From Eledone cirrhosa (Eukaryota), in the NCBI GenBank assembly GCA_964016885.1, contig OZ024741.1, positions 18,042,001 through 18,106,000 on the forward strand: 64,000 bases of DNA, given 5' to 3'. A program made the translations under genes and the position numbers. This document shows, piece by piece, positions 4,275 to 46,419 of this stretch. The notes beneath the pieces are model-generated. The model did no database searches and had not been told where the DNA came from. It worked only from the letters and a program-made list of their open reading frames with translations. Numbering within the stretch: position 1 is the first letter of the stretch; the number at the start of each line of letters is the position of its first letter.

Positions 4275-4305
<31 letters not shown>

Positions 4306-4552
4306 AATGTTTTCTTTATTAACCACAAGGGTTCACATAAAGTAGACATTAAGGACAGTACAGGACAATACAGGACGGTACAAATGGGCATTTCTGCGTG
4401 TAAAAAAAACAGAGGTTGAAATAAAATAACAAAGAAAAATTCCCCAATAGGGGGGAGACTTCCAAGGGACATTTGTGGAGAAAGCCCATTAAAAGACCAC
4501 AGTGGCCCTGACCACCAGGGCAAGTGCCCTCTCCCAGTTTTCCACCTTTAAT

Positions 4553-7500: not shown

Positions 7501-7969
7501 ACCACTAATCCCACACAATCACTGCGTGAATCTAAGATCCCGTTCCAGTCGCCCACTAACACTAAAGAGCGGGACGTTCCAAGAAAGGTCTCCAGACGCC
7601 GGAAGAAATCAGGCCGCCCTGCTCCTGTCGGGGCATAGACGGCCACTAACCTGAAAGCTTGCCCGTCTCCGCTGGTCACGTCCAGCACCACCAACTTACC
7701 TTCTGGGTCCAGGAAGATGGCCCGTATGGCAAGATCCAAACCTCTCCGAAAAAGCACAGCAACTCCTCCCCCCGATCCCGGACGGCTGGGAGATGCGTAC
7801 ACATCGTAGCCGCCGAAGATCGGTGCGAAAGCCTGTGCTTCGGAGATTCTGGTCTCGCTGATGGCCACTACATCTATGTTTAGTGACCTGAGGTCGTTGA
7901 GCAGGTGCCCTGCTTCCATGACGACCCCAAGCCACGCGCATTTATGCTGCCTATTCTGAGTGAGGTCAT
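4553..7969 (-). pseudogene. Element 1 ORF2: APE endonuclease - reverse transcriptase - zf-RVT-like (frameshifted)
   Basis: Likely start MTSLRIGSINARGL at ATG 7969. Motifs SETR, GDWN, YLDR, TDH (APE); KSPGLDG, FRPITLLN, DQSKAFDRV, RQGCPLS, AYADD (RT); CPRCAQGDETVLHALVQC. Split over ORFs 6876-8003, 5413-6885, 4753-5409 and 4553-4774. Confidence 0.9.
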
Positions 7970-8003
7970 GTTGAAAAGGAGTGGAAAAGATGGGAAAGAC
8001 CAC

Positions 8004-9487
8004 TTACCTTACTTCTCGTAGGGGAAGGACGGTTTTTCCATCCTTTTCACTGCTTGTGGCCTCCTCAGGAAGGATGTCCTTATAAATCCTCCTGGAGAGT
8101 GCTTGTCGGAAGTCTCCGATGTCTTTGGGGAATTTTTGTTTTAGTGTCATGTACGTTTTCTGTGTGATGCGAGTGATTTGTATGTGTGGAGGTGGTGTGA
8201 ATTTTGGGGTTGTTGTGTAGTCTTTTTCTGTGATGCTGGTGTTGTGTTGGATGTAGTGTAATAATTGCTTGTTGTTCAAATTTAATACTGTGTAGTGTGT
8301 ATCGTTTTGGTTGTTTTGTTTTGTTTCCGTTTGTTGTGGGTTTGTTTCTGTTTCGCATTTTGGTGACTTTTGTGGTGTAGGTGATGGTGGTGTTGGGGTT
8401 AATGATGGTGATGGTGTTGGTGTTTGGGTTGATGGGGTTGGTGATGTTGGTGTGGATGGTGGCATATCTGTCCTAACTTTTTTGTTTCTTAATTTATTTG
8501 TTTCCCTCTGTATTTTGTTTTTGGAGGGGGAAGGAAGAGAATTTTTTCTTTTTTGGTTTCTTTTTTTTTTTCCGGATATCGTTTCCCACTCCTCGTCGTC
8601 ACAATCTGTCTCCAGTTGTGATAGGCCGGGGAGTGGAAAATCCTCCACAGCCGTTAGTTTTGGTTGTGGCGTGGTGGATGGTGTAGGCGCTGGTGCTAGT
8701 TCTGAAGCGTTGGGTGGTGGTGGTGTTTGTTTTGCTGGTAGTGGTGGTGGTGTTGGTTTTGCTACTGTTGCTGGGTTGTTGCTGTTATAGTTGCTTCTGT
8801 TGTTGCTGCTACAGTTGTTGCTGCCATCTCTGCTACTGGTGGTGTTGATGGTTGTGTCACTGGGGTGGGTAGGAGAGGTGGCCTCAACCTTTTAGCCTGA
8901 GGGCAGAAAGCCCTTAGGTGGGTTCCTTCACCACAAACGACACACCTAGGTCTTCTGCCCTCGACAATTACCGTGAGGTGTCTGCCGTCAGTGAGGTCTA
9001 TTACCTCTGGGATCTCCTCAATGCTTTTTTGGTCCGCTTGGATCAGGAGCTCCATCCCAGATCCGGACCAGTTCTCCTGCTTTTCTTTTGCTATTGCTAT
9101 TATTTTCGTATTGGCTTCGATGCCGGCGAGGACAGCCGCTATTAGCCAGGGAATTTCGATGGCCGGTGGAACGTGGGTCACCCTTATCTTTACGAGTCTC
9201 TGTCCACAATAGCTTGGGACGAGTGTGAAGTCGTCACTTTTTAATGGGGCCATGGAGTGTTCTCTAGCCTCCTCTGGTGTTTCAAAGAACACGTCCACGG
9301 TTCCATACTTTTGCCCACGTCTGATGTGGGTTTTTCTTGCCCACACATGTCCCAAAGCTTTTTGGATTTGGGACTCGGATGCCCGTTCCACTCGGCGCGA
9401 TTTTACATTTATTGTTCTATACGACACGGTGCACAGGCGCCGATGCTCCATTTTATTAGGGGGGGGTGAGGCTGACCCTGTACCCAT
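8004..9487 (-). pseudogene. Element 1 ORF1: gag-like RNA-binding protein with CCHC zinc knuckle and Pro/Thr-rich tail (frameshifted)
   Basis: VEGRRPRCVVCGEGTHLRAFCP knuckle in ORF 8762-9487; continues out of frame in ORF 8004-8648. Confidence 0.85.
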
Positions 9488-9794
9488 CTTTCTTTACCAT
9501 TTGTTTGGCATTTTCTAAATCCTCCTGAGTTACCGTAAATGCTTCGAACTGTTTTGCTACTCTGGCGAAACTCCCCCTCCCAAACCTCCCACTCTTCTTC
9601 AATTACATACAACCGTCTCTCTTCTACCACTCCACTCTCTCTCTCTCTCTCTCTCGTCCCCTTTCTCTCTACACCCACACACATTTATACATTATCACAC
9701 ATGTATGCATATATAACTATATATAATTGTAAAGACATGTATGCATATGTATGTATTTATGTATGTATATACGTGTATATATATATATATATAT

Positions 9795-10225: not shown

Positions 10226-10259
10226 TTCTTAAATAGATTCTTCACCATTTTCATCACCA

Positions 10260-13030: not shown

Positions 13031-13119
13031 CACGCCATCTACCACCCACAACTAACAACTACTGGGAATAAAAAGAATGTGAAAAGAGCAACAACGACAA
13101 GAATAAGAACAACAGCATG

Positions 13120-13143
13120 AAACAGCAATAACTGCAACAACAA

Positions 13144-13175
<32 letters not shown>

Positions 13176-13602: not shown

Positions 13603-13763
13603 CTAGAACGTGTGTTAAGATTATTACCGAAATGGAAATACGAAGAAATTAAAATGAAAAAAAAAAAATTAACCACAGAAACAGAGAAAATTACACGAGA
13701 GAAAAACAGGATAGAGATAAGAAATGATATATATCTACAGGAATATATATATATATATATATA

Positions 13764-23170: not shown

Positions 23171-23599
23171 TCTTAAATAATGTGTTAAACTGTTTAGATG
23201 AGATAAACACAACTGGAATGTGTTTGATCTTAAATTTGCAGGTTCAGTACTGACATATGGTTAACTAAATCCAACAACATCACATCAAAACGTGAAACAA
23301 ATAGAGATTATAACGAAATATCGATAGATGAAAACTTCCAACTGGTAAGTAATAATATTAAATGAAAAGCTAAATAACCTAGTGAACTTTAACAAACATG
23401 TTGGTAGAAAGACCTGTAGTACAAGACATATAACATGCCAGATAGAAGTAGGTTACCATTAAAATAATAGAGTTCTTCATATCATCTGAAGATCACCAGC
23501 TGGTGTGAAATTCTGAGTCATGTTTATATGTTTGTGTATAAGGCATAGTGTTTCACGAGAGATAGTGAAGACATGAAGAAGAACAAAGAAAGAAAGATA

Positions 23600-23660
23600 A
23601 TAGGTAGGCAGGTAGTTAGGTAGGTAGGTAGATAGATATATAGATAGATAGATAGATAGG

Positions 23661-23702
<42 letters not shown>

Positions 23703-23718
23703 GGTAGATAGATAGATA
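23600..23718. repeat. (GATA/GGTA)n array at the 3' end of Tx1 element A
   Basis: Direct reading. Confidence 0.95.
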
Positions 23719-24050
23719 TGTTTCTTTTATTTGCCACCAGGGCATCAAAAGTGGGACAAGTACAAAGGGGGGAGTTTACACAAAAAGGCGTCCTCAATAA
23801 GGAGGAGGCAATAACAAAGTATAAAAATAAAATAAAATATAACAAAAAATAAAATTTATAACAAAATCCTCAATAGAGAGGAGGCGCCTTGGGGGGTCGC
23901 CCCCCCCCCCCCCCGAAAAAAGTGTGCAACCCTTTTCCTCAGGAGCACAGAGAGGGGGTGCTCCCTCGTTCCTTCCTCTTTTCCACCTACAGGCTTATGT
24001 AAAGAGAAGGCCCATTCACACGGGCCATTCTCGCCACTTTCACCCACCTT

Positions 24051-27000
24051 TCATAAAAACGACTGGGGTGGAGCACCTCTCTCTCCATCCCGATCCTTGA
24101 AGAAACGGACCAGTTGTTGGCCAGAGAGAAAGGTGCCTGACCTCAGTCCTTTGAGACGCGTCCACCATACAACTTCTTTCACCATGGCTATTACGTACAG
24201 AAACACCGCCTCTCCTTTATCTTTGAAGGGGGGAGGCGGCTTTATCATTACAATAGACTCGGTGGTCAACCGGATCGGTCCCACCCTTGCCAGCAGTTGT
24301 TCGACATAGCCCCACACACCGAGCAGTGTACCAATGCGTGTGCAACGGTTTCCTCGTCGCACACGCATCTGGGACAGATCTTTTTGGCGGGGTCCCTACC
24401 CGGGCGCCCGTGTCTGTAGAGCTTTTCTCGAACGGGTAGAGCCCCTCGGTAGCACTGCCAGGCCAGGGACTTCTGGAAGTTGTCCATAGGTCCCGGGCTG
24501 AATGTCCTACCGAACAGGCTGGCCAGTTCGTCCTCCTCCATGTCTAGGGCTTCTCCGAGGGCGTCGTCGCACCTGCTGCGTACCAGCCCTCTATAGAATG
24601 TTGCGGTGGAGTCTCCACTGATAAACGGATCTGCCTGCCAGAGGGCGGTGAGCGCCTGGGCACACTCAGTGTGCCAGGCGCCCAGTTTTCTCGGTCTTTG
24701 CTTGACCCAGGATTGCAGCTCGGTGAGTGAGACGAGTCTGGGAAAGGTTCGTCTCACAAACGAGGCCCACACCGGTTGACCGGTGAGGAATACGTAGAGA
24801 TGCCGTAGCCTTAATGCGTATTTACGCATCATTAGCCACGGCATCCCCAGCCCTCCTTTCGAAGGGTGTTGACAGCAGATGGATCTCCTCACCATAGGAG
24901 CCCGCCTCTTCCAAAGGAATTGGAAGAGCGCGCGCTCCATCTTGGTGAGGGTTTCCCTTGGGCAGGGCACTACGGTCAGGCGGTAGTAGATGACGGACGC
25001 TATATAGTTGTTCGCCACCTCCGCCCGATCTTTCAGGGATAGTTTGCAACTGGCCCACTTCTGGGTCAGTGCAAACACCCTGTTCGTAACCTCCGCCCAG
25101 TTTTTCTCCACCTGGAGGTCCGGTCCGAACCAGACCCCGAGCAACTTCACCGGGCCCTCCGTCCAGCGTCCGACGACGCCATCGGAGGGCATCGATCTGC
25201 CCCTCCACGTGCCGAGTTGCAAACCGATCGACTTGTCCCGGTTCAGCTTAGCCCCTGTGAACCTTTCGTACTCCTCCAGTAAGGTGCCGACCGCCTCGAT
25301 TTCGGAGGCCGTCGACACCATTACTGTCACGTCATCGGCGTAGGCCGACACCGCTTTCCGCAATCCCGGTTCCAAAGGGATGCCCTGCAACAACTCCAAC
25401 TTCCGCAGTAGTGGCTCGAGAGTCAACACATACAGAAGGGAGGAGAGAGGGCACCCTTGTCGGATGGACCGCGCGATTTTGAACGGCTCCGAGAGGTAGC
25501 CGTTCACCTTGACCCTAGAGCAGAAAACGGGTCCGAAGCCTGCCGCCGCTAGCACCGCATCCAGGTAACCATGGTCGACCCTATCGAACGCCTTAGATTG
25601 ATCCAAGTTGATCAGAGCCCCACCAAAGCCGGGTTCGTTCCCAACCCTCTCTATGATGTATCGCATGAGGTGGAGGTTGTCATGGATGGACCTGGACGGG
25701 ATAGCGCATGTCTGCGCATCTCCCACCAGGCTGCCCACGACAAGCGCCAACCTCTTTGCTAGCACCTTGGCCAAAATCTGTAACTCTGTATTTAGCAGAG
25801 TTATGGGCCTGAAGTTACTTATTTCGTCCCACTTGTTCTCGTCCTTCCTCACTAGCGTGACTACGCCCTTGGTCACAGTACAGGGAATTCTCCCGTTCTG
25901 TTTCCAGTTGCAGTAGACCGCCTCGAGGAGATCGGGGAACAAGTCCGGCATAGCTAGATATAATTCGTAAGGAATACCATCGAGACCCGGGGATTTGCGT
26001 TTGCCGCATTGGCTCAGCACGTCCTCTATCTCAGCGGCCGAAATCGGCTCCTCGCAGGACTTCGCCTCCCTGTCCGAGAGGCGCGGCAAGCCGTCGAGGT
26101 ATGGACCGAAGTCCACGTTCCCAACCGGCTCCCCGCCCCTCCCGGGCAAAGTGCCTTTGAAAGGCCTCACGCATCTGCTTAGGCTCAAGAATCGCCCGTC
26201 CATCCAGGTCTCGCAAAGACCGGATGGTGGATTTAGTTCCACTGTTGGCCTCTGTCACGCGGGCCCAGCTAACAGCTTTGGTCCCCTCGTTCCCTAGAGC
26301 ACGTATTTTACTTCGGACAACGCAGCCTTCGTGCTTCGCGTCGAAAAACTGGCTCAAAGCCGTTCTCGACGCTAGCACTCTGGCCACGTCGCCGCTTCTA
26401 ATTGCCTCTTCTACTCTATCTATTAGCTCCCTTTCCTTCCTATTCCTATCCGCAGCTAGAACCTTACTAAATTCTATCGAGACTACTCTAATCTCTCTCT
26501 TTAGAGATACCCACCACCTGCTGTTGACGATCGCTCCAGTCAACCGTTCCTTAACTAACGTACTAATCCGATCTCTGTAGGCTCTACTTGCCGGCAAGGA
26601 CAAGTTGAGCTTCCAGTAACCGGGGCCCTGTCTATGCGTTCTATCAAGGTTGACCACGCAGATCACCAACTTGTGGTCTGAATAGCCAACCATGAGCATT
26701 TCTGGACAACTTAAAAAGTCCCTGTCCTTATTTCTAACTAAAAATCTATCTAGGTACGACCTAGATGATCCGCTGCGATTTGACCAAGACCAGGTTGGCA
26801 CCGTCGGAAAATCTAGTCGAAATCTATCGGCCAGGTCAAATCGGCCGAGTAACCCCTTGAGGCTGTTGCACCCCTCTCTGTCGCGACATGCCTCTGCATA
26901 GTCCCAACGTGCATCCAAGATACCATTCCAATCCCCCACTAGAAAAGACTCCAGACGCTGGAAAAAGTCGGGCCGCTCTGTCCCAAAAGGGGCATATGCG

Positions 27001-27329
27001 GCTACCAGCCTAAAGGCTCTACCTTCACCACTGCCAAGGTCCAGCACCACCAGTCGACCCCTTGGGTCCAAGTGAACTATCTGTGTTGCAAGGCCCATAT
27101 GTTTTTGCAGCAGAACTACAACCCCACCCCCACCTCCGGGCTGACAGAGAGATGCGTGCATCTCAAAGTCGTCAAAGGTGGGGGCTAGCTGTCGCATGCT
27201 GCTGATCCGGGCCTCGCAGATAACCATCACATTTATAGATTGTGACCTGAGGTCATTTAGAAGCATTGCTTGCTTCCAAGATGAGCCCAGGCCACGCGCA
27301 TTTAGACACCCTACTCTTAGCACAGCCAT
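24051..27329 (-). pseudogene. Element A ORF2 (APE-RT-zf), with frameshifts and small deletions
   Basis: MAVLRVGCLNARGL, GDWN, SDH, AYADD and CPRCVCDEETVAHALVHC across ORFs 26031-27353, 24266-26242 and 24051-24368. Confidence 0.9.
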
Positions 27330-27353
27330 GTTGGTGGTATGGAGAAAAGGCAC

Positions 27354-29217
27354 TTACCTCTCTGCGTCCCGGGAAACGGGCCGCTCAATTTCCATGCTGG
27401 TTGGGGATGGGTTGTTGGGTGGGGTGGTGGTTTGTGGAAGTGAAGGGGCATCGGTGTGTTGTGGGGTTGGGGTGTTTGTGGTGGAGTGGGTGTCTGGGTG
27501 GGGGGGGGGGGTATTTTTTAGGAGGACACGGTTGATTGGTTTGGCGCAGGGGGGGGGGGGGGGGGCACGTCCTCCGTGAAATTTATTTTCAGTGTTTTGT
27601 ACAAGTGCATTGGGACTTTTATCATTTTTAAATGAGGTAGTCCCACAGCAGTTATAAAGTTAGGCCCTTCAGTTTGGACCGAAGGGTTTGCTGAAATTGT
27701 TTTCCGTAATTCTTTGTTGTCTGTGTTCATGTATGTATATTGTAAGGTCTTTTTTTGTGTAGCAGTTAGTGTTGTTTGACAGGGAGGGGTGGTTTGTGTG
27801 TAGTTTGTGTTCTCTTGGGGGGGGGGGTGTTAAAGTTAACATGTGTGTCTGTGGTGCGTCTCCTCTTCTTTCTTTTTACTTGTTGGAAGGGATCTTTTTC
27901 GTCTTGCGACGAAAGGGGTTCGTCTTCCTTGTTGGGTGGGAGGGGTATGTTTTCTGGTAGTGTTTGCGGTGTGTGTGTTTTTGTATTTGTTTTGGGTGGG
28001 GAATTGATTGGGTTTGGACGGTATTCTGTGTTATTTTTTCACGTGTTTGTTGTTGTTGTTGTTGTTGTGGTGGTGGTGGTGGTGGTAGGGTTGTTGGTTT
28101 TTGTTGTTGTTGTGGTTGTTTTTGTTGTTGTTGTTGGGGTGGTGTTGGTGTTGGTAGCAGTGTTTTTTTCTGTGTGAGCTGGGGACAGGCAGCCCTCAGG
28201 TGACCTCTATTGCCACAGAGGTAACAGGAGGGACGCCTACCCTCCACAATAATGTTGAGGTGGGTACGGTCATCCAGCATGACGCGCTCAGGGATTTGGG
28301 CGATGCGTTCTGGCCTTATTTGGGTCAGAACTTCGATGCTCGTTCCACTGAACGCGTCGCCGGATGCCTTCCCTATTGAAATGAGGTTGTCCTCGTCTAA
28401 ATAGAGGAAACCGGTTAGTAACCACCAGTAGTTTATGTTTGGGGTGATGGTGGTTATCCATATCCTCTGGGTTTTTTTACCCATATAGGTGGGGAAGAAG
28501 GTGTAGTGTGTGGACCGAATTGGCGACACAGAGTATTTTTTCGCCGCCAATTCGTCTTTCATCAATATGGATAAACTCCCATAGAGTTTATCCTTTTGTA
28601 TAAAAGTGATGTCTCTCATCGCTTCTTTCAAGACTAACTGAATTTCGGCTTGAGATGGTTGTGCTGGTTTTTTTGTTTTATTTAAAATTGTTCGGAATAC
28701 GACAGTTCGTAATTCCGTCTGTTTTTTTTAGTTCTGGAGGTGAATGTATAGAAAACGAACCGTTTTCGCCAAAAGATACATATTTCTTGGCTTTTTCCAG
28801 CATTTCTTTTGCTTTTGAAATGTCTTCCAGCACATATGCGACTGATAATTTAGCCGTTTGTGCAAAAGATATTTTGTTTTCGCTTTGGATTTTAGTATTG
28901 TTTTGTTTCTCGTCATTTGAGTTGTTTTCATCTTTGTTGTTGTTGTTGTCTTTCTCGTTTGGTGTGTGGATACTTGTGACGTTTGTGTTGTTGTTGTTTT
29001 TGTTGTCTTTATTGTTGCTGTTGTTGTCGTTGTTGTTGTTGTTTTCAAATTCTTGTATAGTTGTGGCTACTTCTAGTGGTCGGTCAACAGGTGAAGACAA
29101 TTCTTCCTCTCTCTGACCTCTGCCTTTGGCGTCTGCTGCTGTGACAGTGGCAGGGGGAAGCTGTGAGTATGACTTCCCCTTTCCTTCTTTGATTGATGGT
29201 GAAGATGCTTCAGCCAT
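27354..29217 (-). pseudogene. Element A ORF1 (CCHC knuckle), frameshifted
   Basis: VEGRRPSCYLCGNRGHLRAACP; ORFs 28678-29226, 27876-28631 and 27518-27730. Confidence 0.85.
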
Positions 29218-29439
29218 TTTTCTCAAAATAGGGTTTTTCGAAGTTTTTCGAAAGATAAAATGTTCACAATACTATTTCGCCCAAAGGCGCAGAATATTTT
29301 GAGAGACCGACCAGATCAAAATTTGACCTGGCAGTCCCTCTACAAAATGGTACAAAAATGAAAGTTTACAGTTTACAATTTCCGTATGAATTTAAACAAA
29401 ACTTACCGAGCGAGCTCAGCACATGTGTCCATCGTAAAG

Positions 29440-29440
<1 letters not shown>

Positions 29441-29490
<50 letters not shown>

Positions 29491-29523
29491 CAGATAGGTA
29501 GATAGCTAGATAGATAGATAGAT
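29441..29523. repeat. (GATA)n array between elements A and B
   Basis: Direct reading. Confidence 0.97.
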
Positions 29524-29754
29524 TTCTATTTATTTGCCACTAGGGCACAAGAGAAAGGGACAAATACACAGGGGGGAGTTTACATAAATACGAGTAAAGA
29601 AAAAGGCATAACAATGATAATAACATAATAATAAAAAGTCCTCAAAAGGGAGGGGGCGTGTTGGGGATTGCACATACCCCCGAAAAGTGTGCAACCCTTT
29701 TCGCGGGGTAAGCCCAGAGAGGAGGCGCTCCCCCTTTCCTCTTCACTTCTTCAC

Positions 29755-32700
29755 CTACAGAACAATGTAGAGAGAAGGCCCATTTACACGAGCCATTCTC
29801 GCTTCTTTCACCCACCTTTCATAAAACTGTCTGGGGCCAAGCACTTCTCTCTCCATCCTGATCCTTCTTCCGAAGTGGTATCGGAAGAAGTAAACCGGGT
29901 GATGACCGGAGAGAAAGTCACCCGACCTCAGACCTTTCAGGCGCGTCCACCACACAACCTCTTTCATCATGGCTATTACGCACAGAAAGACCGCCTCTGC
30001 TTCATTTCTGAAGGGAGGAGGCGGCTTGATGTTCACCACAGACTCGGCGGTCAATCGAATCGGCGCCACACGCGACAGCAGTCGTTCGACGCAGCCCCAC
30101 AGGTCGGCAACGCCCGGGCAGTGTACCAGTGCATGCGCAACGGTTTCCTCGTTGCGCACGCATCTGGGACAGATCATTTTCGCGGGATCCCTGCCCGGGC
30201 GCCCGTGTCTGTAGAGCTTTTCTCGAACGGGCAGAGCCCCCCGGTAACACTACCAGGCTAGGGACCTCTGGAAGTTGTTCCTGGGTCCCGGGCCGAAAGT
30301 TCTACCGAACAGGCTGGCCAGTTCGTCCTCCTCCATGCCTAGCGACTCTCCAAGGGTGTCGTCGCCCCTGCTAGCTACCAGCCCTCTATAGAATATCGAG
30401 GTGGATTCTCCACTGATAGTCGGGTCCGCTTGCCAGATAGCTGTGAGCGCCTGGGCACACTCGGTGTGCCAGTTGCCCAGTTTTCTCAGTCTTTGCTTCA
30501 CCCAGGATTGCAGCTCGGTGAGCGAGACGAGCTGTGGGAAGGCTCGCCTCACAAACGGGGCCCACACCGGCTGACCGGTGAGGAATACCTGTAGATGCCG
30601 TAGTCTCAATGCGTGCCTACGCATCAACAGCCACGGCATACCCAGCCCTCCTTTCGAAGGGTGCTGGCAGCAGATGGATCTCCTTACCATGGGAGGCCGC
30701 TTCTTCCAGAGGAACTGGAAGAGCATGCGCTCCATGATGGTGAGCGTTTCCTTAGGGCAAGGCACGACGGTCAGGCGGTAGTAGATGACGGACGCTATGT
30801 AAGCGTTCGCCACCTCCGCCCGACCTTTCAGTGATAGTTTGCACTTGGCCCACTTCTGGCTCTGCGCAAACACCCTGCTCGTCACCTCGCCCCAATTCTT
30901 CTCCACCTGGAGGTCCGGTCCGAACCAGACCGCGAGCAGCTTCACCGGGCCCTCCGTCCACCGTCCGACGACACCGTCTAACGGCATCGGTTTGCCCCTC
31001 CACGTTCCGAGTTGCAAACCGACTGACTTGTCCCGGTTCAGCCTAGCCCCCGTCAGCCTTTCGTATTCCTCCAGTAGGGTGGCGATCGCCCCGATTTCAG
31101 AGGCGTCCGCCACCATTACTGTTACGTCGTCAGCATAGGCCGAGACCGCTTTGTGCAATCCCGGTTCCAGGGGTATGCCCCGCAGCAACTCCAACTTCCG
31201 CAGCAGTGGCTCGAGAGCCAATACGTACAGAAGGGAGGAGAGGGGGCACCCCTGTCTGATGGACCGGGTGATTTGAAACGGCTCCGAGAGGTAGCCGTTT
31301 ACTTTAATCCTAGAGCAGACGTTGCCACTGTGCATGGCAGAAATCCAGCCCCTGAAAACGGGTGCGAAGCCCGCCGCCGCTAGCACCGCATCCAGGTAGC
31401 CATGGTCGACCCTATCGAACGCCTTAGATTGATCCAAGTTGATCAGGGCCCCACCAAAGCCGGATTCGTTCCCAACCCTCTCTACGATGTATCGCATGAG
31501 GTGGAGGTTGTCGTGAATGGACCTGGACGGGATAGCGCATGTCTGCGCGTCTCCCACCAAGCCAGCCACCACAAGCGCCAACCTCTTCGCTAACACCTTG
31601 GCCAAAATCTGTAACTCTGCATTCAGCAGAATTATGGGCCTAAAGTTACTTAAGTCGTCCCCCTTGCTCTCATCTTTCCTCACTAGCGTGACTACGCCCT
31701 TGGTCACAGAACAGGGAATTCTCCCGTTCTGTTGCCAGTTGCAATAGACAGCCTCCGGAGAACAAGACCGGCATAGCTAAATAAAGTTGGTATGGTAGAC
31801 CATCGAGACCCGGAGATTTGCGTCTGCTGCATTGGCTGAGCGCTTCCCCAATTTCAGTGCTGTGATTGGCCTTTCGCAGCACTCCGCTTCGCCGCTCGAA
31901 AGACGCGGTAGACCGTCGAGGTATGGACCGAAGTCCACATCCCCGTCCGGCCCCCCGCCCCCTCCGAACAGTCGAGCAAAGTGCCTTTGAAAGGCCTCGC
32001 ACATCCGCTCAGGTTCAAGGATCACCCGTCCATCCTGGTCTCGCAAAGACCGAATGGTGAATTTAATCCCACTCTTGGCTTCTGTCACGCGGGCCCAGCT
32101 AACAGCTTTGATCCCCTCGTTCCCTAGAGCACGTATTTTACTTCGGACAACGCAGCCTTCGTGCTTCGCGTCAAAGAACTGGCTCAACGCCGTTCTCGAC
32201 GCTAACATTCTGGCCACGTCTCCGCTCCTAATCGCCTCTTCTAGTTTATCTGTCAACTCCCTTTCCCTCCTATTTCTATTCGCCGCTAGTTCCTTACTGT
32301 AACCTATCGTACTTACTCTAATCTCTCTCTTTAGAGATACCCACCACCTGCTGTTGACGATCGCTCCCGTCAACCACATCTTAACTAAGCTACTAATCCG
32401 GTTCCTGTAAGCTTCCTTTGCCGGCAAGGACAAGTTCATCTTCCAGTAACCGGGACCCTGTCTATGCGTTCTATCAAGGTTGACCACGCAGGTCACTAAT
32501 TTGTGATCTGAATAGCCAACAATGAGCAATTCTGGACAACTAAATACGTCCCTATCCTTACTCCTAACCAAAAACCTATCTAGGTACGATCTAGATTGAC
32601 CACTGCGGTTTGCCCAGGTCCAGGTTGGCACAGTTGGAAAATCTAGTCGAAATCTATCGACCAGGTCGAATCGATCGAGTAACCCCTTGAGGCCGCTACA

Positions 32701-33183
32701 CCCCCCTCTATCGGGACATGCCCCTGCATAGTCCTAACGCGCATCTAGGATTCCATTCCAGTCCCCCACTAAAAGCAGGGAACGCGACGTTCCTAGAAAA
32801 GTCTCCAGACGCTGGAAGAAGTCGGCTCTTTCAGCCCCGAAGGGGGCATAAAGACCGACCAGTCTGAAAGCCCCACCTTCACCGCCTCCGACGTCCAGCA
32901 CCAGTAATCGACCCCCCGGGTCCGAGTGAACAATCTGTACGTCGAGAGCCAGAGATTTATCCAGCACTACGGCAACCCCACCCCCGCCTCCGGGTTGACA
33001 GAGAGATGCGTGCATCTCAAAGTCATCGAAGGCGGGAGCCAGCTGTCGCACGCTGCTGATCCGACTCTCGCAAACAACCATCACATCTATACTTCGTGAC
33101 CTGAGGTCACTTAGAAGCTTTGCTTGCTTCCAAGCTGAGCCCAGGCCACGCGCATTCAAACAACCAACTCTCAATTGATCTAT
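29755..33183 (-). pseudogene. Element B ORF2 (APE-RT-zf), with in-frame stops and frameshifts
   Basis: LRVGCLNARGL, GDWN, SDH, AYADD, CPRCVRNEETVAHALVHC. Nonsense codons at 32734 and 30250; start codon apparently ATG>ATA. Confidence 0.9.
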
Positions 33184-35272
33184 TTTGGTGTTGAAAGTGA
33201 AGAAAGAAAAGCACCTACCTCTTCGGGTTGTGTAATTTCCATGGGGTCGGGTGTGTTGTGTGGAGGGATGTTTTGTGGTAGTGTGGGGGTATCCGAGTGT
33301 GGTGGGGTTGGGGTATTTGGAGTTGTGTCAGGGAGAGGGGAGGTTATGGGGAAATCTTTCAAGAGGACGCGATTTAACGGTTTTAAACAGGGGGGCTCAC
33401 GTCCTGTTTAAATTGTTCTTTTAAGGAACGATAAAAGTCCAGAGGGACCTTTATCATTTTTAAATGGGTGAAGTTCTCTGTTGAGATAAAGTTTGGCCCT
33501 TCGGTCTGCACCAAGGGCTATTGTTTATTAATTTAAACAGTTTTTTTGTTTTCTTTATTTATATATGTGTATTGTAAAGTCTTTTTTGTGATGCTGTCAA
33601 TGTTTCGAAGGGGGGAGGCGCAGATTTATTTTTGTTTGTCGAGGGTGGGGTGTTTTTGATTGGAGTTGGTGTTTGTGTGTGGGTTATTTGTTGTGGTGTG
33701 CTAGGTGTGTGCTTTCGTTTTTTTCTTTTAACTTGTCTGAAGGCTTCTCTCCCTTCTTCTTCAGAAGTTGGGGGAAATCTTCAGCGCTAGGTGGGAGGGA
33801 CGTGGTGTCTGGTTGTTTTTTTTTGTGGGAGGGGTAGATTTGTTGCTGCTTTTTTTATTATTTGTTTGGAATGTGTTTTGTGGTGGTGGTGGTGGTGATG
33901 TTTGTGTCGTGCTTGTGGTTGGTGATGGTGGTGGTGATGTTTGTGTTGTGGTTGGTGCTGGTGGTGGTGATGTTTGTGTTGGGCTTGTGGTTGGTGGTGT
34001 CTGTATTTTGTTTACTGTGTGTTGTATTAGTGTATTTTTGGAGGTGGGTGGTGTTGGTGTACTGTTTGTGGTGGGTGTGGGCAATAGTCCTTTTTGTGGG
34101 ATACGAATCGGGCAGTTAGCCTTAGCGTGTCCCCTTTCCGTGCATGAATAGCATGCTGGTCTTCTCCCCTATACAATTATATATATTGGGGTGAGGTCAT
34201 CCAGCCAGATGCGATCCGGGATTTGCGCTATTCTTTCGGGCCTCATTTGGACTTGTAGGTCGAGGCCCATTCCCAGGAACGCATCTCCAGATGCCTTCCC
34301 CATTGACAGCACTGTGTCCTCGCCCATGTCTATGAAGCCAGCAATAGCCCACCAGAAGTCCATTGTGGGCAGCATTGTCTGTATTTTGACTTTCTGAGTT
34401 CTTCTACCCATGTAGGAGGGATAGAAACTGTATGCTGTTGATGTGAGTGGGCTTAGGGAAAGCCTCTGTGCTGTTTCCTTGTCTTTTGTTAAAACAGAAA
34501 TGCTGCCATAGAGTCGGTCCTTTCGTATGAAGAGAATATTCTTCATATGGTCTTTTAGGACCAACTCTATCTCCATTTGGCTGGGCTGTGCTGGCTTTCT
34601 TGTGTTGTTTAGGACTGTTCTAAACAGAACAGTGTTTTCTAGTCTCGTTTTCTTGAATTCTGGGGGGGGGGGTATTAAAGGAAAACATTCCGTTCTCCCC
34701 CAAGACTATGTGCTTTTTTGCTTCTGCCAGTTTCTCTCTGGCGGCAGTTAAGTCAATAGGTGTATATATTATAGATTTTTTTGTTGTCTGTGCGAAAGTT
34801 GTTTTTGTTGTGTTTGTGTTATTTATGTTGGTGTATTCGTTCACATTTTTTTTTCTTTGGGGTTAGACTCCATTTTTTCAAAGTCTTCACTTATATTTTC
34901 ATTATCCGAGAGACTTGTAGTCACAGCTACTACTTCTCTTTCACCTTTGCTGGTGGGCGTGGCGCCGTGAAAAGTCGAAACGTCATCCATTAATTTTGGC
35001 AATTTCTCCGAGTTAATTTTTTTCACATTTTTTTCATTAGGGTTAGGTTCCATTTTTTCAATGTTTCTAATAATCATTATTCTTTCAGTAGGGTGGCTTG
35101 TTGCCTCAGCTACCCGCTCTCCTTCAGTTTGTTTAGTGGGCGTGTCATCGTTACTTGTGGTAATGGCTTCCATTACCACTAGCGTAGAGACAATTGCAAG
35201 ATTTTTAGGATGAAAAATTTCACCCCAAAAGGGATGAAATAAATTAACCCTAATGTCCGGAGACCCAGGCAA
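33180..35272 (-). pseudogene. Element B ORF1, fragmented
   Basis: KDRLYGSISV and QMRPERIAQIPDRI motifs are shared with A and C; knuckle region at about 34110-34165. Confidence 0.8.
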
Positions 35273-35380
35273 GGGGGTTAATTAACACAATAACGCAAGA
35301 ATACAGACAAACACTTACTGTTAACACGTAATATCTCCAATATTCGCGGAGCCGATGTGAAGCACGTCTATGCCATCCGG

Positions 35381-35399
35381 AGATAGATAGATAGATAGG

Positions 35400-35434
<35 letters not shown>

Positions 35435-35443
35435 GTAGATAGG

Positions 35444-35500
<57 letters not shown>
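35381..35500. repeat. (GATA)n array between elements B and C
   Basis: Direct reading. Confidence 0.97.
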
Positions 35501-35714
35501 TTCTTTATTTACCATAAAGGCATAAAAAGAAGGGACAAATACAAAGGGGGAGTTTACATAAAATCGAGTAAAAAGGGTATAAAATGAAAATAATCGAAAA
35601 CAACCTCAAAAGGGAGGGGACGTGATGGGGGTTGCACACACCCCCGAAAAAGTGTGCAATCCTTTGCCCGGGGAGCACATGGAGAAGGTGCTCCCCTCTC
35701 CTTCACTTCTTTAC

Positions 35715-38700
35715 CTACAGGATGGTATACAGAGAAGGCCCATTTACACGAGCCATTCTCGCCACTATCACCCACCTTTCATAAAACTGCCTGTGGCCAA
35801 GCACCTCTCTCTCCATTCTTATCCTTCTTCCGAAGTGATATCGGAAGAAGTAGACCAGACTATGGCCAGAGAGGAAGTTGCCTGACCTCAGACCTTTCAA
35901 TCGTGTACACCAAACAACCTCTTTCAACATGGCTATTACGCACAGAAAAACCGCCTTTGCTTCCTTTGTGAAGAGGGGAGGCGGCTTGATTGTCACCACG
36001 GACTCGGCGGTCAATCGAATCGGCTCCACCCGCGACAGCAGTCGTTCGGCGTAGCCCCACAGATCAGCCACGCCCGGACATTGCACCAATGCGTGCGCAA
36101 CGGTTTCTTCGTGACGCACGCATCTAGGGCAAATCTTTTTCGAGGGATGCCTGCCCGGGCGCCCGTGTCTGTAGAGCCTCTCTCGAACGGGTAGAGCCCC
36201 CCGGTAGCACTGCCAGGCTAGTTACTTCTGGAAGTTGTCCATTGGTCCCGGGCCGAAAGTCCTACCGAACAGGCTGGCCAGTTCGTCCTCTTCCATGTCC
36301 AGCGACTCTCCAAGGGTGTCATCGCCCCTGCTAGCAACCATCCCTCTATAGAATGATGAGGTGGATTCTCCACCGATGGCCGGGTCCGCTTGCCAGAGAG
36401 CCCTGTGCGCCTGGGCACACTCGGTGTGCCAGTCTCCCAGTTTTCCGGATCTTTGCTTGACCCAGGACTGCAGCTCGGTGAGCGAGACGAGTCTCGGAAA
36501 GGCTCGTTTCACGAACGGAGCCCACACCGGTTGACCAGTGAGGAATACCTGTAGGTGCCGTAGCCTTAATGCGCGCCTACGCATCATCAACCACGGCATC
36601 CCCGGCCCTCCTTTCGAAGGTTGTTGGCAGCAGATGGATCTTCTCACCATAGGGGGGCGCTTCTTCCAAAGAAATTGAAAGAGCATGCGTTCCATGGTGG
36701 TGAGTGTTTCCTTAGGGCAAGGCACGACGGTCAGGCGGTAGTAAGTGACGGACGCTATGTAAATGTTCGCTACATCCGCCCGACCTTTTAGGGACAGCTT
36801 ACACTTGGCCCATTTCTGGGTTAGTGCAAACACCTTGTTCGTAACCTCGCCCCAGTTCTTTTCCACCTGGAGGTCCGGTCCAAACCAGACCCCAAGCAAC
36901 TTCAACGGGCCCTGCGTCCAGTGTCCGACGACACCATCGGGAGGCATCGGTCTGCCTCTCCACATTCCGAGTTGCAGCCCGATGGATTTTTCCCGGTTCA
37001 GTTTCGCTCCTGACAACCTTTCGTAATCCTCCAGTAAGGTACCAATCGCCTCGATCTCCGAGTCGGTCGATACCATTACTGTTACGTCATCGGCGTAGGC
37101 CGACACCGCTTTGCTCAATCCTGGTTCCAGGAGGATACCCTGCAACAACTCCAACTTCCTCAGTAAAGGCTCGAGAGTCAATACGTACAGAAGGGAGGAG
37201 AGAGGGCACCCCTGTCGAATGGATCGTGTGATTTCAAACGGCTTCGAAAGGTAGCCGTTCACCTTGATCCGAGAACAGATGTGGTTGCTATGTAAGGCAG
37301 TGATCCAGCCTGTGAAAACAGGACCGAACTCAGCCGCCGCTAGCACCGCATCCAGGTAACCATGGTCGACCCTATCGAACGCCTTAGACTGATCCAAGTT
37401 GATCAGGGCCCCACCGAAGCCGGGTTTGTTCCCAACCCTCTCTATGATGTATCGCATGAGGTGGAGGTTGTCGTGAATGGACCTGGATGGGATAGCACAT
37501 ATCTGCGCATCTACCACCAGGCCACCCACGACAAGCGCCAACCTCTTTGCTAACACCTTGGCCAAAATCTTTAACTCTGTGTTTAGCAGGGTTATGGGCC
37601 GAAAATTATTTATGCTATGCCCCTTGTTCTCGTCCTTCCTCACCAGCGAGACTACGCCCTTGGCTACAGAACAAGGAATTCTCCCGTTCTGCTGCCAATT
37701 GCAGTAGACTGCTTCGAGGAGTTCGGAGATGAAGACCGGCATTGCTAAATAAAGTTCGTAAGGTATACCATCGAGACCTGGAGATTTGCGTCTGCTGCAT
37801 TGGCTCAGCGCATCCCCGATCTCATCAGCCGAGATTGGTCCCTCGCAGGACTCTGCCTCTTCGCTCGAGAGACGCGGCAGGCCGTCGAGGTATGGACCGA
37901 AATCCACGTCCCCGCCCGGACCCTCGCCTCCCCCGAATAATCGGGCAAAGTGCCTTTGAAAGGCCTCGCACATCTGCTTAGGCTCCCGGATCACCCGTCC
38001 ATCCTCGTCTTGCAAAGACCGGATGGTGGATTGATTTCCACTCTTAGCTTCTGTCGCGCGGGCCCAGCCAACGGCTTTGGCCCCCTCATTACCTAGAGCA
38101 CTATTTTACTTCGAATGACGCAGCCTTCGTGCTTTGCATCCAAAAACTGGCTCAAGGCCGTCCTCGATGCCAGCACTCTGGCCACATCTTCGCTCTTGAT
38201 TGCCTCTTCTAATTTACCTGTTAATTCTTTCTCTTTCCTATTCCTATCGGCAGCTAACATCTTGCTATAACTTATTGATTCTGTTCTAATCTCTCTTTTG
38301 AGAGATGCCCACCATCGGTTGTTGACGATTGCACCCGTCAACTTCTCCTTAACTAATCTGCTAATCCGGTTTCTGTAAGTCTCTTTTGCCGGTAAAGACA
38401 AATTAAGTTTCCATTAACCGGGACCCTGTCTATGTGTTTTCTCGAGATTGACTACGCAGGTCACTAATTTGTGATCCGTATAGCCAACCGTGAGCATTTC
38501 TGGACAGCTTAATATGTACCTATCCTTACTTCTAACTAAGAATCTATCTAAGTACGATCTAGATTGACCACTATGGTTCGTCCAAGTCCAGGTTGGCACA
38601 GTTGGAAAATCTAGTCGATATCTATCGACCAAGTTAAAGCGGTCGAGTAACCCCTTGAGGCTGTTACACCCCCCTCTATTAGGACATGCTCCTGCATAGT

Positions 38701-39151
38701 CCCAACGTGCATCTAGGATGTCATTCCAATCCCCCGCTAGAAGCAGGGAACGCGCCGTTCCCAGAAAAGTCTCCAGACGCTGGAAGAAGTCGGGTCGTTC
38801 AGCTCCGAAAGGGGAGTAGACGGCGACCAGTCTCAAGGCTGCACCTTCACTACTGCCAACGTCTAGCACCAACAAACGACCTTCCGGGTCCGAGTGAACA
38901 ACCTGTACGACGAGACCCAGTTGTTTTTCCAGCAGTACGACAACCCCACCCCCACCTCCAAGTTGACAGAGAGATGCATGCACCTCAAAGTCATCGAAGG
39001 TAAGGGCCAGCTGCCGCACGACGCTGATCCGAGTCTCACAGATAACTATTACATTTATACCACGTGACCTGAGGTCATTTAGAAGCTTTGCTTGCTTCCA
39101 AGTTGAGCCCAGGCCACGTGCATTCAAACATCCTACTATTAACACATCCAT
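35715..39151 (-). pseudogene. Element C ORF2 (APE-RT-zf), disrupted
   Basis: MDVLIVGCLNARGL, GDWN, TDH, AYADD; ORFs 38414-39151, 38093-38401, 36222-38015 and 35715-36119. Confidence 0.9.
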
Positions 39152-39184
39152 GTGGGCGGCAAAGCCAAAGTAGAGTGTAGAGAC

Positions 39185-41033
39185 TTACCTTTCTGCTTCC
39201 CGGGGTTCGGGTCGCACGACTTCCATGGGGTCGGGGGTGTTGGGTGAAGGGGTGTCTTGTGGTGGTGTGGGGTCGTCAGTGTGTGGTGGGGTTGGGGTGT
39301 TTGGAGTTGTGTTGGGGAGAGGAAGGGGAGGGGGAAAGCTTTTTAGGAGGACGCGGTTTATGGGTTTGACAGAGGGTGGTCCTACGTCCTCCTTAAAATC
39401 CTTTTTTAGTTTTTGGTAGAGGTTCATTGGGATCTTTATTAATTTTAAATGTGGGTAGTTTTCTGAAGAAACAAAGTTTACCCCTTCGGTTTGTACCGAA
39501 GGGTTATTGTTTATGAGTTCATTTAATTTATTATTGTTTCTGTTGATGTAAGTATAGTGTAATGTCTTTTTTTCGGATGGTGTGAGTGTTTCGAAGAAGG
39601 GGAGGGGCAGGTTTGGTTTTGTTTGTTGCTGGAGGGGTGTTTTGTGTTTTGTTGGATTGTGTTGACATTTGGGTAGGGGTTGTTTGGCCTTGTGTGTTTT
39701 GCACATGTTTTCTATTTTTCCTTTTAATCTGTCTGAAGGACTCCGTTTCTTCCTCCGAATTCGTTGGGTTATCTTCAGTGTTGGAGGGAAGAGGTATGTT
39801 TGCTGGTAATGTTTCCGTGTTGGTTTTCTTTGTGGGGGAGATGGATGTCACTATGTTAGACTGTGTTGTGTGTTGTGGCTGCGGTGGTTGTGTTGTTTTA
39901 TTGAGTGAGGGGTTGGGTGGGACTGTGTTTTGTTTTTGGGTAATGTGTTGTGTTTGTTTGTGTTGTGGTGGTGGTGTAGTTTTACTGAGGGACGGGTTGG
40001 GTGGGACTGAGTTTTGTTGTTTGTTTATCTGTTGTGGTGGTGGTGGAGCTGGTGTTGGTAGCAGGGTTTTCTTCTTGTTGAGTTGGGGACAAGCCGCCTT
40101 CAGGTGCCCTCTGCCTGCAGAGATATGACAGGACGGCCTTCTCCCCTCCACGCTAATGTTTATATACCCGTGGCCCTCTAATAGAATTCTGTCGGGTATT
40201 TGGGCAATGCGTTCAGGCTTCATTTGCACTACAAGTTCTATACCTGTTCCACTGAACGCATTGCCTGTGGTTTTCCCAATGGAAATCACGTTGTCATTCG
40301 CTGGATCGATGAAGCCAGCTATGAGCCAGCAGTAGTCCACATCTGGCATCATCGCATCCAGCCATATGCGCTGAGTTCTTTTACCCATATGAGATGGATA
40401 AAAGGTAAAATTTGTCGAACGAATCGGCGACAAAGCATATTTTTTTGCCGCTGATTCGTTCTTCATAATAATCGCTAGGCTTCCATACAGTCTGTCCCTT
40501 CTTATGAAAGTGGCTTCATTAAGTACTTCTGTAAGTACTGCTTTAATTTCTGCTTGTGTTGGTTGTTGAGGTTTTTTTGAGATGTTGTTGATGGTGCGGA
40601 AAACGACCGTCCGACTTTCAATATCTTTGGTGAGATCTTGGGGCATTTTTACCGATAAGGTTCCATTTTCCCCTTGAGTTATGTATTGTTTGGCGTTTTT
40701 TATTCTTTGTGCCACATCTGAAATATTTTCAGGTATATATGTTAAAGATTTCTTTGTTGTTTGTGCAAATGAAATATTATTGGTGTTGACTTTGTCGTCT
40801 GCTTTGCTTTCTGTTATGATGTTGTTTTCAAATGTTATTTTTGTGTTTGTTGTGTCTTTGCTTGTGGTATTAATATTGTCATGCAATTCTTTCAAATTTT
40901 TGTTGTTGTTGGAATCAATGTCCAGATTTGTGTTTTCGTCATTTTTCTCCGCACATTCGTCTGTTTTTATTTTATTTTTTCCTTCCTTCTCTATGACGTT
41001 AGTTGGGAAGGAAGAGGGGACTAAAGCGTGCAA
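39185..41033 (-). pseudogene. Element C ORF1 (degenerate knuckle CHISAGRGHLKAAC), one frameshift
   Basis: ORFs 39531-41033 and 39185-39706 are homologous to ORF1 of A and B. Confidence 0.85.
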
Positions 41034-41323
41034 GCTTACAACTCTTACCGCTGTCCCCCACCACTATTTTCGTTAGCTTCGTTTAACATTTCTGCCAGAC
41101 GATTGAAATTTTATGCCACAAAATTTAAAAAAACAGGTTTTTCACCCCTGGGAGGGGCGAAGATGAGCTGACCCACCGCCTGACAGTTCAGACGGGGGGT
41201 CAAGCTACACAATAGTATCAAAATTAAAATTGAACTTACAAAATTTCCGCAATAAATTGGAACAAAACTTCTGCGCGAAGTGAATTACGTCTACGCTATA
41301 GAACAGACGACAGCTAGATTATT

Positions 41324-41324
<1 letters not shown>

Positions 41325-41410
<86 letters not shown>
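41325..41410. repeat. (GATA)n array at the 5' end of element C
   Basis: Direct reading; followed by GA-rich low-complexity sequence to about 41700. Confidence 0.97.
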
Positions 41411-41411
<1 letters not shown>

Positions 41412-41888
41412 GCAGGTGAAAGGAAAAGGTATGAGAGAGTGAGAGGTATGAGAGAGTGACAGCTATGTGAGAGTAACAGGTATGGGAGAGTGAGGTATGA
41501 AAGACAGGTCTGAGAGAGAGAGGTATGTAACAGTGAAGTGTGAGATGTATGAGAGAGGCACGAGAGAGTGAGATATGAAACAACGAGAGAGGGAGAGACA
41601 GACAGACAGAGTGAGAGTGTGAGAGACAAACATAGAGGCATAAGATAGAGAGAGGGATAAGATAGAGAGAGGGATAATATAGAGGGTGGGAAGAGAAGTG
41701 GAAGTATTTGTCGAGACAGATTTGGTAAAACCGGTCCAATATTAGTCAGTTGTCCACCTGTTTCTCATTAACTACCTTGATAACATATACAAGATACTGG
41801 CAATGTGTCATCTGATTTAGTTTGTCACATTCATATATATATAGAGTAACAGGAGGCTGGACTGGTGTAAATCCTTGAAAGGTTTATT

Positions 41889-41946
41889 ATACTATGATCA
41901 TTTCAATGACCGGGTTCCATATGAATCCGGTGATATCATCAGGTAT
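41889..41946 (-). ncRNA. Type I hammerhead ribozyme motif
   Basis: Minus: ATAC-CTGATGA-TATCACCGG...CCGGTCATT-GAA-ATGATCAT-A-GTAT; palindromic stem III. Confidence 0.68.
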
Positions 41947-42138
41947 TCGAAATATAACAAAGGAATATATAAAAACCATGGGTCCGAAAAATCAGAGACA
42001 GAGAGGACGACTGACCAACTAGCTGCTTACACCTCGGCCAGTCGTCCTCGAGGTGAAAACAGCTAGTTGGTCAGTCGTCCTCTCTGTCCCTGATTTTTCG
42101 GACCCATGGTTTTTATATATTCCTTTGTTATATTTCGA

Positions 42139-42196
42139 ATACCTGATGATATCACCGGATTCATATGGAACCCGGTCATTGAAATGACCATAGTAT
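42139..42196 (+). ncRNA. Type I hammerhead ribozyme motif (mirror copy, stem III ATGACCAT)
   Basis: ATAC-CTGATGA-...-GAA-ATGACCAT-A-GTAT. Confidence 0.62.
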
Positions 42197-42388
42197 AATA
42201 AACCTTTCAAGGATTTACACCAGTCCAGCCTCCTGTTACTCTATTTATAATTAACTCCGTATTCGCACCACCAACTACACAAACGAAGACGAGTGAACTG
42301 CACTGCGTTGAGTACTCTCCACAATATTACACCAAGATTGACCATACGGAATGACCAATTCTATCCAGTGGTGAACCAACAAACCTAT

Positions 42389-45727: not shown

Positions 45728-46419
45728 AATATTCCTTCCAGATCCTGGTGTTTCATACTACCTATCCCTTGTATATATGTGTATATATGTATACATGTAT
45801 GGTATGTGTGTGTGAGTATGAGTGCGTGTTTGTGTGTGTGAGTATATCTGTATGTGTGTGTGTGTGAGTGTATGTGTGTATGCAAGCGTGTGTATCTATA
45901 AGCTTTCTTGTATGTGGTGGTAAAGGCGACATAATAATGTGTGTGTGTGTGCATGTATGTATGAGTGTATGTGTATGTATGTTAGTGTGTGTGCATGTAT
46001 GTGTGAGTGTGTGAGTGTGTGTGCATGTATGTGTGAGTGTGTGTGTGTGTATGCTAGTGTGTGTGCATGTATGTGTGAGTGTGTGTGTATGCTAGTGTGT
46101 GTGTGTGCATGTATGTGTGAGTGTATGTGTATGCTAGTGTGTGGGCATGTATGTATGAGTGTGTGTGTGTGTGCATGTGTGTGTGAGTGAGTGTGTGTAT
46201 GCTAGTGTGTGCATTTATGTGTGAGTGAGTGTGTATGCTAGTGTGTGTGTGTTCATGTATGTTGTTCGTCTGTGTGTGTGTGTGCATGTATGTATGTGTG
46301 TATGCTAGTGTGTATGTATCTATAGGGACGTATCTATGTCTATATTGGACTGTGTGTCTTTATGTTACGATCCCTGTATGTGGTAGTAATGGGGACATGA
46401 TGTGTGTGTGTATGTATGT

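Follow-up and report, generated by a model that had tools for sequence, protein, structure and literature searches.

Background

Among long interspersed nuclear elements (LINEs), those of the Tx1 clade include families that insert into microsatellites. Examples are the teleost families Kibi and Koshi, found in (TC)n and (TTC)n, and Tx1 families of crocodilians, found in (TTCC)n/(TTTC)n (PMC4494074); other microsatellite-targeting LINEs belong to other clades (PMC4640811). In RTE-clade LINEs and in AfroSINEs, which are short interspersed nuclear elements (SINEs), the 3' microsatellite matches the first base of the target-site duplication (PMC6007223), and human L1 requires a match of at least 4 bases for priming, with up to 10 being read (PMC3649969). 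How target-specific LINEs gain or change their targets is an open question, for which the usual answer is evolution of the endonuclease. The locus considered here is a 64,000-nt stretch of the 3.0-Gb genome of Eledone cirrhosa (contig OZ024741.1, positions 18,042,001 to 18,106,000, forward strand; "the window"), in which three Tx1-like LINEs, termed A, B and C, lie in a row between GATA arrays.

Comparison with their genomic relatives confirms that A, B and C, which represent three Tx1-like subfamilies, inserted separately into a (TATC)n target. Sister branches of the family insert instead into (ATT)n, at dispersed AATAT motifs, or at one position of a 72-bp satellite, and the branch at AATAT has changed its target without a fixed change in its endonuclease. 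Microsatellite-targeting Tx1 families and tail-guided priming were already known; the side-by-side targets and the target switch without a fixed endonuclease change are what the present family adds. A 2026 octopus repeat annotation reports 13 recently active L1-Tx1 families, and its main text does not contain the word "target" (PMC13282606). A GATA- or ATT-specific Tx1 family, or a switch with the same endonuclease, was not found in the searchable literature, which does not cover Repbase and Dfam.

Three separate insertions in the window

The three LINEs, 5.7-5.9 kb each and all on the minus strand, sit between GATA arrays mapped at 23587-23718, 29440-29523, 35381-35500 and 41324-41410. An earlier reading of the same DNA from its letters alone (the original prediction) had placed three minus-strand elements between four such arrays, and its positions were borne out. 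A fourth relative, D, which that reading had not noted, is about 70% identical by BLAST. The features are as follows.

23587..23718, minus strand: (TATC)n array 3' of element A, its far end degenerate
23719..29440, minus strand: element A, a full-length Tx1-like LINE of subfamily A, terminus AATAAAAGAAA-CA
23987..27329, minus strand: open reading frame (ORF) 2 of A, with apurinic/apyrimidinic endonuclease (APE), reverse transcriptase (RT) and zf-RVT; frameshifted
27354..29217, minus strand: ORF1 of A, frameshifted, with a weak CCHC knuckle match and its stop within a splice-donor-like GGTAAGT
29441..29520, minus strand: (TATC)n array separating A from B, which lies upstream
29521..35381, minus strand: element B, full-length, subfamily B, ORF2 with three in-frame stops, terminus AATAAATAGAAA-TC
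35382..35497, minus strand: (TATC)n array separating B from C, which lies upstream
35498..41320, minus strand: element C, full-length, subfamily C, ORF2 with two stops and one frameshift, terminus AATAAAGAAA-TC
41325..41410, minus strand: pure (TATC)n array of about 21 units lying 5' of C; no member of the family is upstream of it
4291..4308, minus strand: (ATT)6 tract 3' of element D
about 4309..9572, minus strand: element D, of an (ATT)n-inserting sister family, lacking about 620 nt of its 5' end

In pairwise BLAST comparisons, A, B and C show 79-82% identity along the 3' 4.3 kb. Aligned globally, they reach 81-84% in the last 3.4 kb versus 54-59% in the first 800 nt, and the disabling mutations differ in position from element to element. 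The proposed divergence, with dissimilar 5' ends and independent decay, thus holds. The exact 3' end of each is AATAAA(A/TA)GAAA, followed by an inherited dinucleotide, which is CA in A and TC in the other two, and then TATC; poly(A) is missing from all three, just as had been read. The array 5' of C (41325-41410) had been described as having no element upstream, and no family 3' end is found there.

Each of the three has many dispersed copies. A first look gave 896-1,760 candidates for most element ends and 284 for the 5' end of B, and genome-wide there are at least 3,334 A-type and at least 1,610 C-type 3' ends. Dispersed copies of the respective subfamily match A, B and C at 94-97% identity, and median pairwise divergence within A, B, C and D (12 copies each) is 1.5-2.7%. 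From the copies examined, locus L167 (3' end unparsable), L184 and L186 (3' end missing), L193 (the same as L192) and the window's own copies were excluded. Stacking is frequent: for 30 of 87 full-length copies, the 250 nt upstream include the 3' end of another family member, and the pairings vary. Around 20 other B copies, C was never upstream and the 5' end of A never downstream; the C-B-A order is therefore not a tandem or segmental duplication unit, in agreement with the original prediction.

TATC is the target

Flanks were compared with a background sample of twenty evenly spaced 10-kb genome stretches, 200 kb in all. TATCT lies within 30 nt upstream of 29/29 full-length A copies, 28/29 B copies and 25/29 C copies, and the opposite orientation (GATAGATA) is upstream of none of the 87; TATCTATC is present at the 5' ends of 75. 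When no element lies upstream, TATCT is still present in 17/17 A, 18/19 B and 17/21 C copies (52/57). Copies truncated at the 5' end provide a cleaner test, because full-length copies can carry a donor 5' flank. Among 32 truncated copies, TATCT is upstream of 27 and TATCTATC of 21, compared with 6.1% and 0.2% of positions in the background.

A target-site duplication was considered informative when it was at least 11 bp long, started at the 3' junction and contained at least two non-repeat letters. Such duplications, mostly 11-23 bp, are present in 21 of 81 copies; shuffled pairs gave a mean of 0.41 and a maximum of 3. The duplications begin with TATC and run into unique sequence; therefore, the motif pre-existed in the target. 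The background sample itself contains two truncated TATC-type copies flanked by TATC on both sides, as well as one full D copy flanked by ATT on both sides.

The 3' flanks agree. The first 100 listed of the 3,334 A-type ends enter TATC (86), TATA (13) or TATT (1), and the first 100 listed of the 1,610 C-type ends include 84 in TATC and 11 in TATA, in a genome where TATAT is 13 times commoner than TATCT in the background sample. By Kojima's rule, under which more than 20% of flanks of one kind constitutes a target preference, the 84-86 of 100 listed 3' ends in TATC amount to one. A longer match is favored: TATCTATC (at least two units) is present in 60 of the 86 listed A ends at TATCT versus 61 of 1,002 sample sites. 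TCTC stands next to 2/100 C-type and 0/100 A-type listed ends; insertion into (TC)n, (TTC)n, (TTCC)n or (TTTC)n, as in the Kibi/Koshi lineage, is thus not the habit of these subfamilies. A tail component exists too, since L195 has about eight extra TATC units on its 3' side relative to its 5' duplication.

Thus, it is close to certain that the family targets TATC. Strand-specific targeting by several subfamilies, with reuse of the site, had been proposed and is upheld by the 82 of 87 full-length copies with TATCT; the choice of a target over a tail had been proposed as well, and now rests on tabulated 5' flanks, truncated copies included. The description of the stack as lying in "one array" needs narrowing: GATA arrays do bound all three elements, but the core target measures 5 nt, and two or more TATC units follow about 60 of 100 listed A ends.

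Two junctions are of a different kind. The 5' junction of L284 is joined through 26 nt of homology to a neighboring family copy, and at L214 a whole interrupted ATT tract is present on both sides, suggesting homology-guided 5' joining or tandem duplication.

Sister branches with other targets

One terminal 3' pattern has 32,707 matches in the genome and its reversed control 35; the pattern omits the termini of A, of C and of part of B (3,334, 1,610 and 24 more). Matches continue into TATC in 13,516 cases, into ATTA in 14,064 and into neither T-start in 1,307. A GATA-specific lineage, as first suggested, therefore describes the TATC subfamilies but not the whole family, in which ATTA continuations are about as numerous. 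ATT stands on either side of 15/15 full-length D copies and of 5/8 truncated ones, and ATT arrays are upstream of 0/82 A, B and C copies. A further subfamily, S, has 347 ends at one position of a 72-bp satellite, with six copies stacked on one contig; 95 of the first 100 listed of these ends enter ACTCTATAT, versus 2 of 310 ACTCT sites in the background sample. In a quick tree, which was midpoint-rooted, contained no L1 or Repbase rows and carries a long-branch-join warning, S is sister to A, B and C inside the TATC group (Shimodaira-Hasegawa-like approximate likelihood ratio test, 99-100) and D falls outside. Subfamilies A, B, C, E, F and G are all on TATC, though their endonucleases diverge (A and C are 80% identical, A and the F' branch described below 69%).

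All six stacked S copies (L421-L424) start at one shared point of the satellite, 65 bases into its unit; about 50 nt of satellite are therefore probably part of the 5' end of S itself. Past the ATT arrays that flank D copies, other recurring repeats of at least three kinds often follow (3' of D at L122, L130, L136, L138-L140, L142-L144, L146 and L149). A Dong/R4 element was considered for the adjacent repeat, and no clear reading frame bore it out. At L134, the repeat next to a D copy opens into a long reading frame resembling ORF1; this repeat may represent a further ATT subfamily. At L232 (about 8140-8290), about 25 nt of a D-type 3' terminus and an ATT array follow unrelated sequence, possibly a SINE partner or an extreme truncation.

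A change of target with an unchanged endonuclease

Family F has 1,235 ends that enter TATC and 129 that enter TCAA. Among 100 listed of these 129, 82 continue AATAT and a few are TATC arrays with one changed base. The AATAT copies, termed F', occupy dispersed, non-repeat AATAT sites. Their duplications start at AATAT at the unrelated loci L429, L433, L434, L453, L457 and L465; therefore, AATAT was in the target, and F' passes this target on. F' copies diverge by 0.4-1.1% from each other and by 0.5-1.3% from the closest TATC-type F copies. A marker base is common to 20 of 21 readable F' locus rows (some loci counted twice), and the alternative base is present in 7 of 9 rows of TATC-type F, both exceptions coming from a single older copy.

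Over endonuclease codons 2-201, thirteen copies share one DNA sequence. Of these, four are flanked by TATC, one by TCTC then TATC, four by AATAT and one by AATCT; three could not be assigned. Within endonuclease residues 1-240, no change is fixed between F and F', only private changes being present. The fixed differences in ORF2 are two silent third-position sites and D932Y, at a residue that is variable across subfamilies.

Two further observations concern bases outside the protein. The base after AATAT is T in 41 of 82 cases versus 26% in the sample (p=4e-6, uncorrected for about eight non-independent copies). Within the listed 100 A-type ends, those with the inherited dinucleotide CT continue into TATA in 7 of 15 cases versus 6 of 85 for the others (Fisher p=0.0004).

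A probable two-step choice of target

Because F' switched targets without a fixed endonuclease change, the site is likely to be chosen partly by bases of donor-flank RNA. A reasonably probable account is that choice occurs in two steps, in which a loose nick by the endonuclease is followed by pairing of donor-flank RNA with the freed DNA end. In the first step, the element's endonuclease is predicted to make a nick of loose specificity; all four targets would be compatible with a nick, as in human L1, at T^A or T^G on the bottom strand, no more than one base from the junction. Processing of an RNA 3' end occurs 10-30 nt downstream of AATAAA. With AATAAA 6 nt before the junction, processing would leave 4-24 nt of donor flank on the RNA. 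In the second step, these bases would pair with the nicked DNA, selecting nicks like the donor's own site; the 4-10 nt pairing of L1 fits the 5-9 base cores seen here. Reverse transcription would then start inside the donor-flank stretch, ahead of any poly(A), which may be why poly(A) is missing. Since each insertion leaves the target duplicated on either side of the element, further insertions can follow there, and same-strand stacks such as C-B-A would build up. A still-active copy at an unusual site could found a branch with a new target.

In such a scheme a part probably remains for the endonuclease, given that several stretches of it are unlike in the ATT and TATC groups. The original prediction had assigned target choice to this enzyme; TATC targeting stands, but the endonuclease alone is not established as its cause, given copies with identical endonucleases at TATC and AATAT and the nested position of S. 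A stronger version of the two-step account is a heritable, RNA-encoded target "memory", in which the transcript carries its landing site and that sequence, not the protein, picks the next one. The case for this version is evenly balanced, and it includes the idea that one off-target insertion founds a target-specific lineage in a single step (TATC to AATAT; TATC to the 72-bp satellite).

Several points weigh against the two-step account. Some copies lack the repeat: 5/32 truncated A, B and C copies and 3/8 truncated D copies have none upstream, and the D copy in the window has no ATT array on its 5' side. Full-length copies can bring a donor flank at the 5' end (L176; a TATC relic at F' 5' ends), and the copies examined are best-scoring hits, so that young ones are over-represented. 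On the protein side, several endonuclease stretches differ between the ATT and TATC groups (e.g., SLCQPG/SPSRPG and NRSG/NRIG), D932Y, outside the endonuclease, distinguishes 6/6 F' copies from seven F copies, and ORF1 of F and F' was compared only in part. F' may descend from one donor, that is, from one switch; S is a second switch, but one with many endonuclease changes. Most 3' ends of the 13 copies with identical endonucleases were matched by expected distance, with read-through ends for L471 and L472 (TATC) and for L427, L428 and two copies in L425-L426 (AATAT). A nick 0-2 nt inside the duplication is possible on these data, and the read-through, the RNA 3' end and the priming position are inferred.

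Alternative explanations

The target could instead be set by protein alone, as is held for Tx1L, R1 and TRAS/SART, with the RNA end playing a minor part; each branch's own sequence would then be read by its endonuclease or by a residue elsewhere in ORF2 or ORF1, such as D932Y. The published view that target choice is mainly set by the endonuclease (PMC4494074) favors this, as do the stretches that separate the ATT and TATC endonucleases, the many endonuclease positions at which S differs from A, B and C, and the fixation of D932Y in F'. It is nevertheless judged unlikely, since F and F' show no fixed endonuclease difference, position 932 varies across subfamilies, A, B, C, E, F and G share TATC despite widely differing endonucleases, and the share of TATA tracks the inherited dinucleotide. 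Clearly less probable is that a host or element factor tethers the machinery to repeat-rich chromatin, or that selection removes non-repeat insertions, with the sequence match secondary. Arrays of two or more units do hold 70% of the listed A ends at TATCT versus 6% of sample TATCT sites, and S copies do cluster in satellite-rich regions, but the junctions are base-exact and strand-specific, F' uses dispersed, non-repeat AATAT, and the far commoner (TA)n arrays receive only 11-13%.

That TATC is an element-encoded tail at random sites, grown by slippage, with 5' arrays derived from upstream elements or 5' transduction, is very improbable. The extra 3' units of L195 are what a tail would leave, an element lies just upstream of 30/87 full-length copies, and some 5' arrays were carried along; yet truncated copies cannot bring a 5' flank and 27/32 have TATCT upstream, and the duplications run from TATC into unique sequence, which largely refutes this reading. 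Hardly credible at all is an origin of the stack by segmental or tandem duplication or by an assembly artefact. Other stacks are indeed near-identical tandem copies (L192/L193, L461-L464, L236), but here each element is far closer to its own dispersed subfamily (94-97%) than to its neighbors (79-82%), and its order does not recur around other B copies; for the window, duplication is refuted.

Coding capacity and clade placement

A, B and C each match the Pfam domains Exo_endo_phos (APE endonuclease), RVT_1 and zf-RVT, and ORF1 of A has a weak CCHC match. The architecture is of Tx1 type, with two ORFs, the second containing APE endonuclease, RT and a C-terminal cysteine motif. An alignment-based structure model of the endonuclease (predicted local distance difference test score, pLDDT, 94) has L1 endonuclease as its best matches, with a TM-score of 0.82. 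The nearest family-named protein is an alligator "transposon TX1 149 kDa protein" (38% identity, 277 bits, 503-aa query), and human L1 ORF2p scores 170 bits against the whole ORF2. The closest vertebrate proteins are 31-38% identical, and relatives at roughly 50% identity exist in the protein search. The architecture and the nearest named protein make it likely that the family belongs to the Tx1 clade. A metagenome scan returned distant relatives only (24-35% identity, one at 42%), and when 8,000 candidates of comparable length were scored against ORF1, none was a homologue at E<=0.001. An L1-type 3' poly(A) was sought in 229 distinct harvested ends, none of which has an A tract; a five-A run is present in 2 of 200 listed A-type and C-type ends. 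Natural copies with an unbroken ORF2 (about 1,145 aa) number 4/20 in A, 0/20 in B, 1/20 in C and 5/20 in D.

In 7/7 subfamilies examined, the ORF1 stop lies within a splice-donor-like G-stop-GT word (GTAAGT, GTAGGT, GTGAGT), in which the stop itself varies (TAA, TAG, TGA) and after which comes a pyrimidine tract. In the window these words are at 27352-27358, 33213-33219, 39183-39189 and about 7999-8005, minus strand, and F, S and E copies have them likewise (L427, L421-L424, L482). Splicing of ORF1 to ORF2 in frame was considered but is not supported; it would depend on weak candidate acceptors and an intron of 39-60 nt, and in F no acceptor is in frame. In subfamily B, the ATG at the ORF2 start is missing in 11/11 matched copies (about 33180, minus strand; L173-L190), and one B copy has an ATG four codons past this position. 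Candidate readings are a non-AUG start of ORF2 or mobilization in trans.

Other features of the window

Just upstream of the array 5' of C, a long inverted repeat with arms of about 190 bp was seen by eye at about 41860-42250; it is possibly like a miniature inverted-repeat transposable element. At 10256-13603, 45 copies of a 63-bp purine-skewed tandem unit are followed by a (CAA)-rich array, and a 968-codon low-complexity open frame arises from the two. Other tandem repeats have units of 16 bp (564 copies, 46417-55364), 93 bp (13 copies, 14047-15243) and 50 bp (at least 17 copies, 63117-64000).

Implications

F and F' constitute a natural controlled comparison, in which branches less than 1% apart have endonucleases without a fixed difference and different inherited targets. 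Together with the unbroken frames present in both groups of families, this makes the question of RNA versus protein testable. If RNA target memory is real, it would explain the frequent target changes of Tx1 elements, and an element could be retargeted by editing a few RNA bases. With at least 32,707 3' ends by one pattern, the family is a large one that shapes GATA and ATT microsatellites, and markers built on such microsatellites could be affected by its insertions.

Comparison with known systems

The R1 and telomere elements R1Bm and SART1 are also target-specific APE LINEs for which target-like RNA has been proposed to anneal to the cut strand; unlike the present family, they belong to the R1 clade and have fixed ribosomal DNA or telomere targets, with specificity mainly in the endonuclease (PMC7265360, PMC6007223). 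Human L1 has the same endonuclease fold as that predicted here (TM-score 0.82), and its sites are set by a nick together with 4-10 nt of RNA-primer pairing, the "snap-velcro" model (PMC3649969), to which the pairing proposed here would correspond. However, L1 pairs through poly(A), so that its target is not changeable by inheritance, whereas the present elements leave no poly(A). In RTE LINEs and AfroSINEs, the RNA 3' repeat is proposed to pair with nicked DNA and may switch sites (PMC6007223); there the match is 1-2 bases and the tail is part of the element, whereas in the present family the match is 5-9 or more bases with an inferred origin in the donor flank, targeting is near-exclusive, and the element is autonomous with an unchanged endonuclease. 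The closest systems are Kibi, Koshi and the crocodilian Tx1 families, which are likewise APE-type LINEs of the L1/Tx1 group in microsatellites (PMC4494074). The present family differs from them in its targets, (TATC)n, (ATT)n, AATAT and a 72-bp satellite, and in having all four within one young radiation in one genome.

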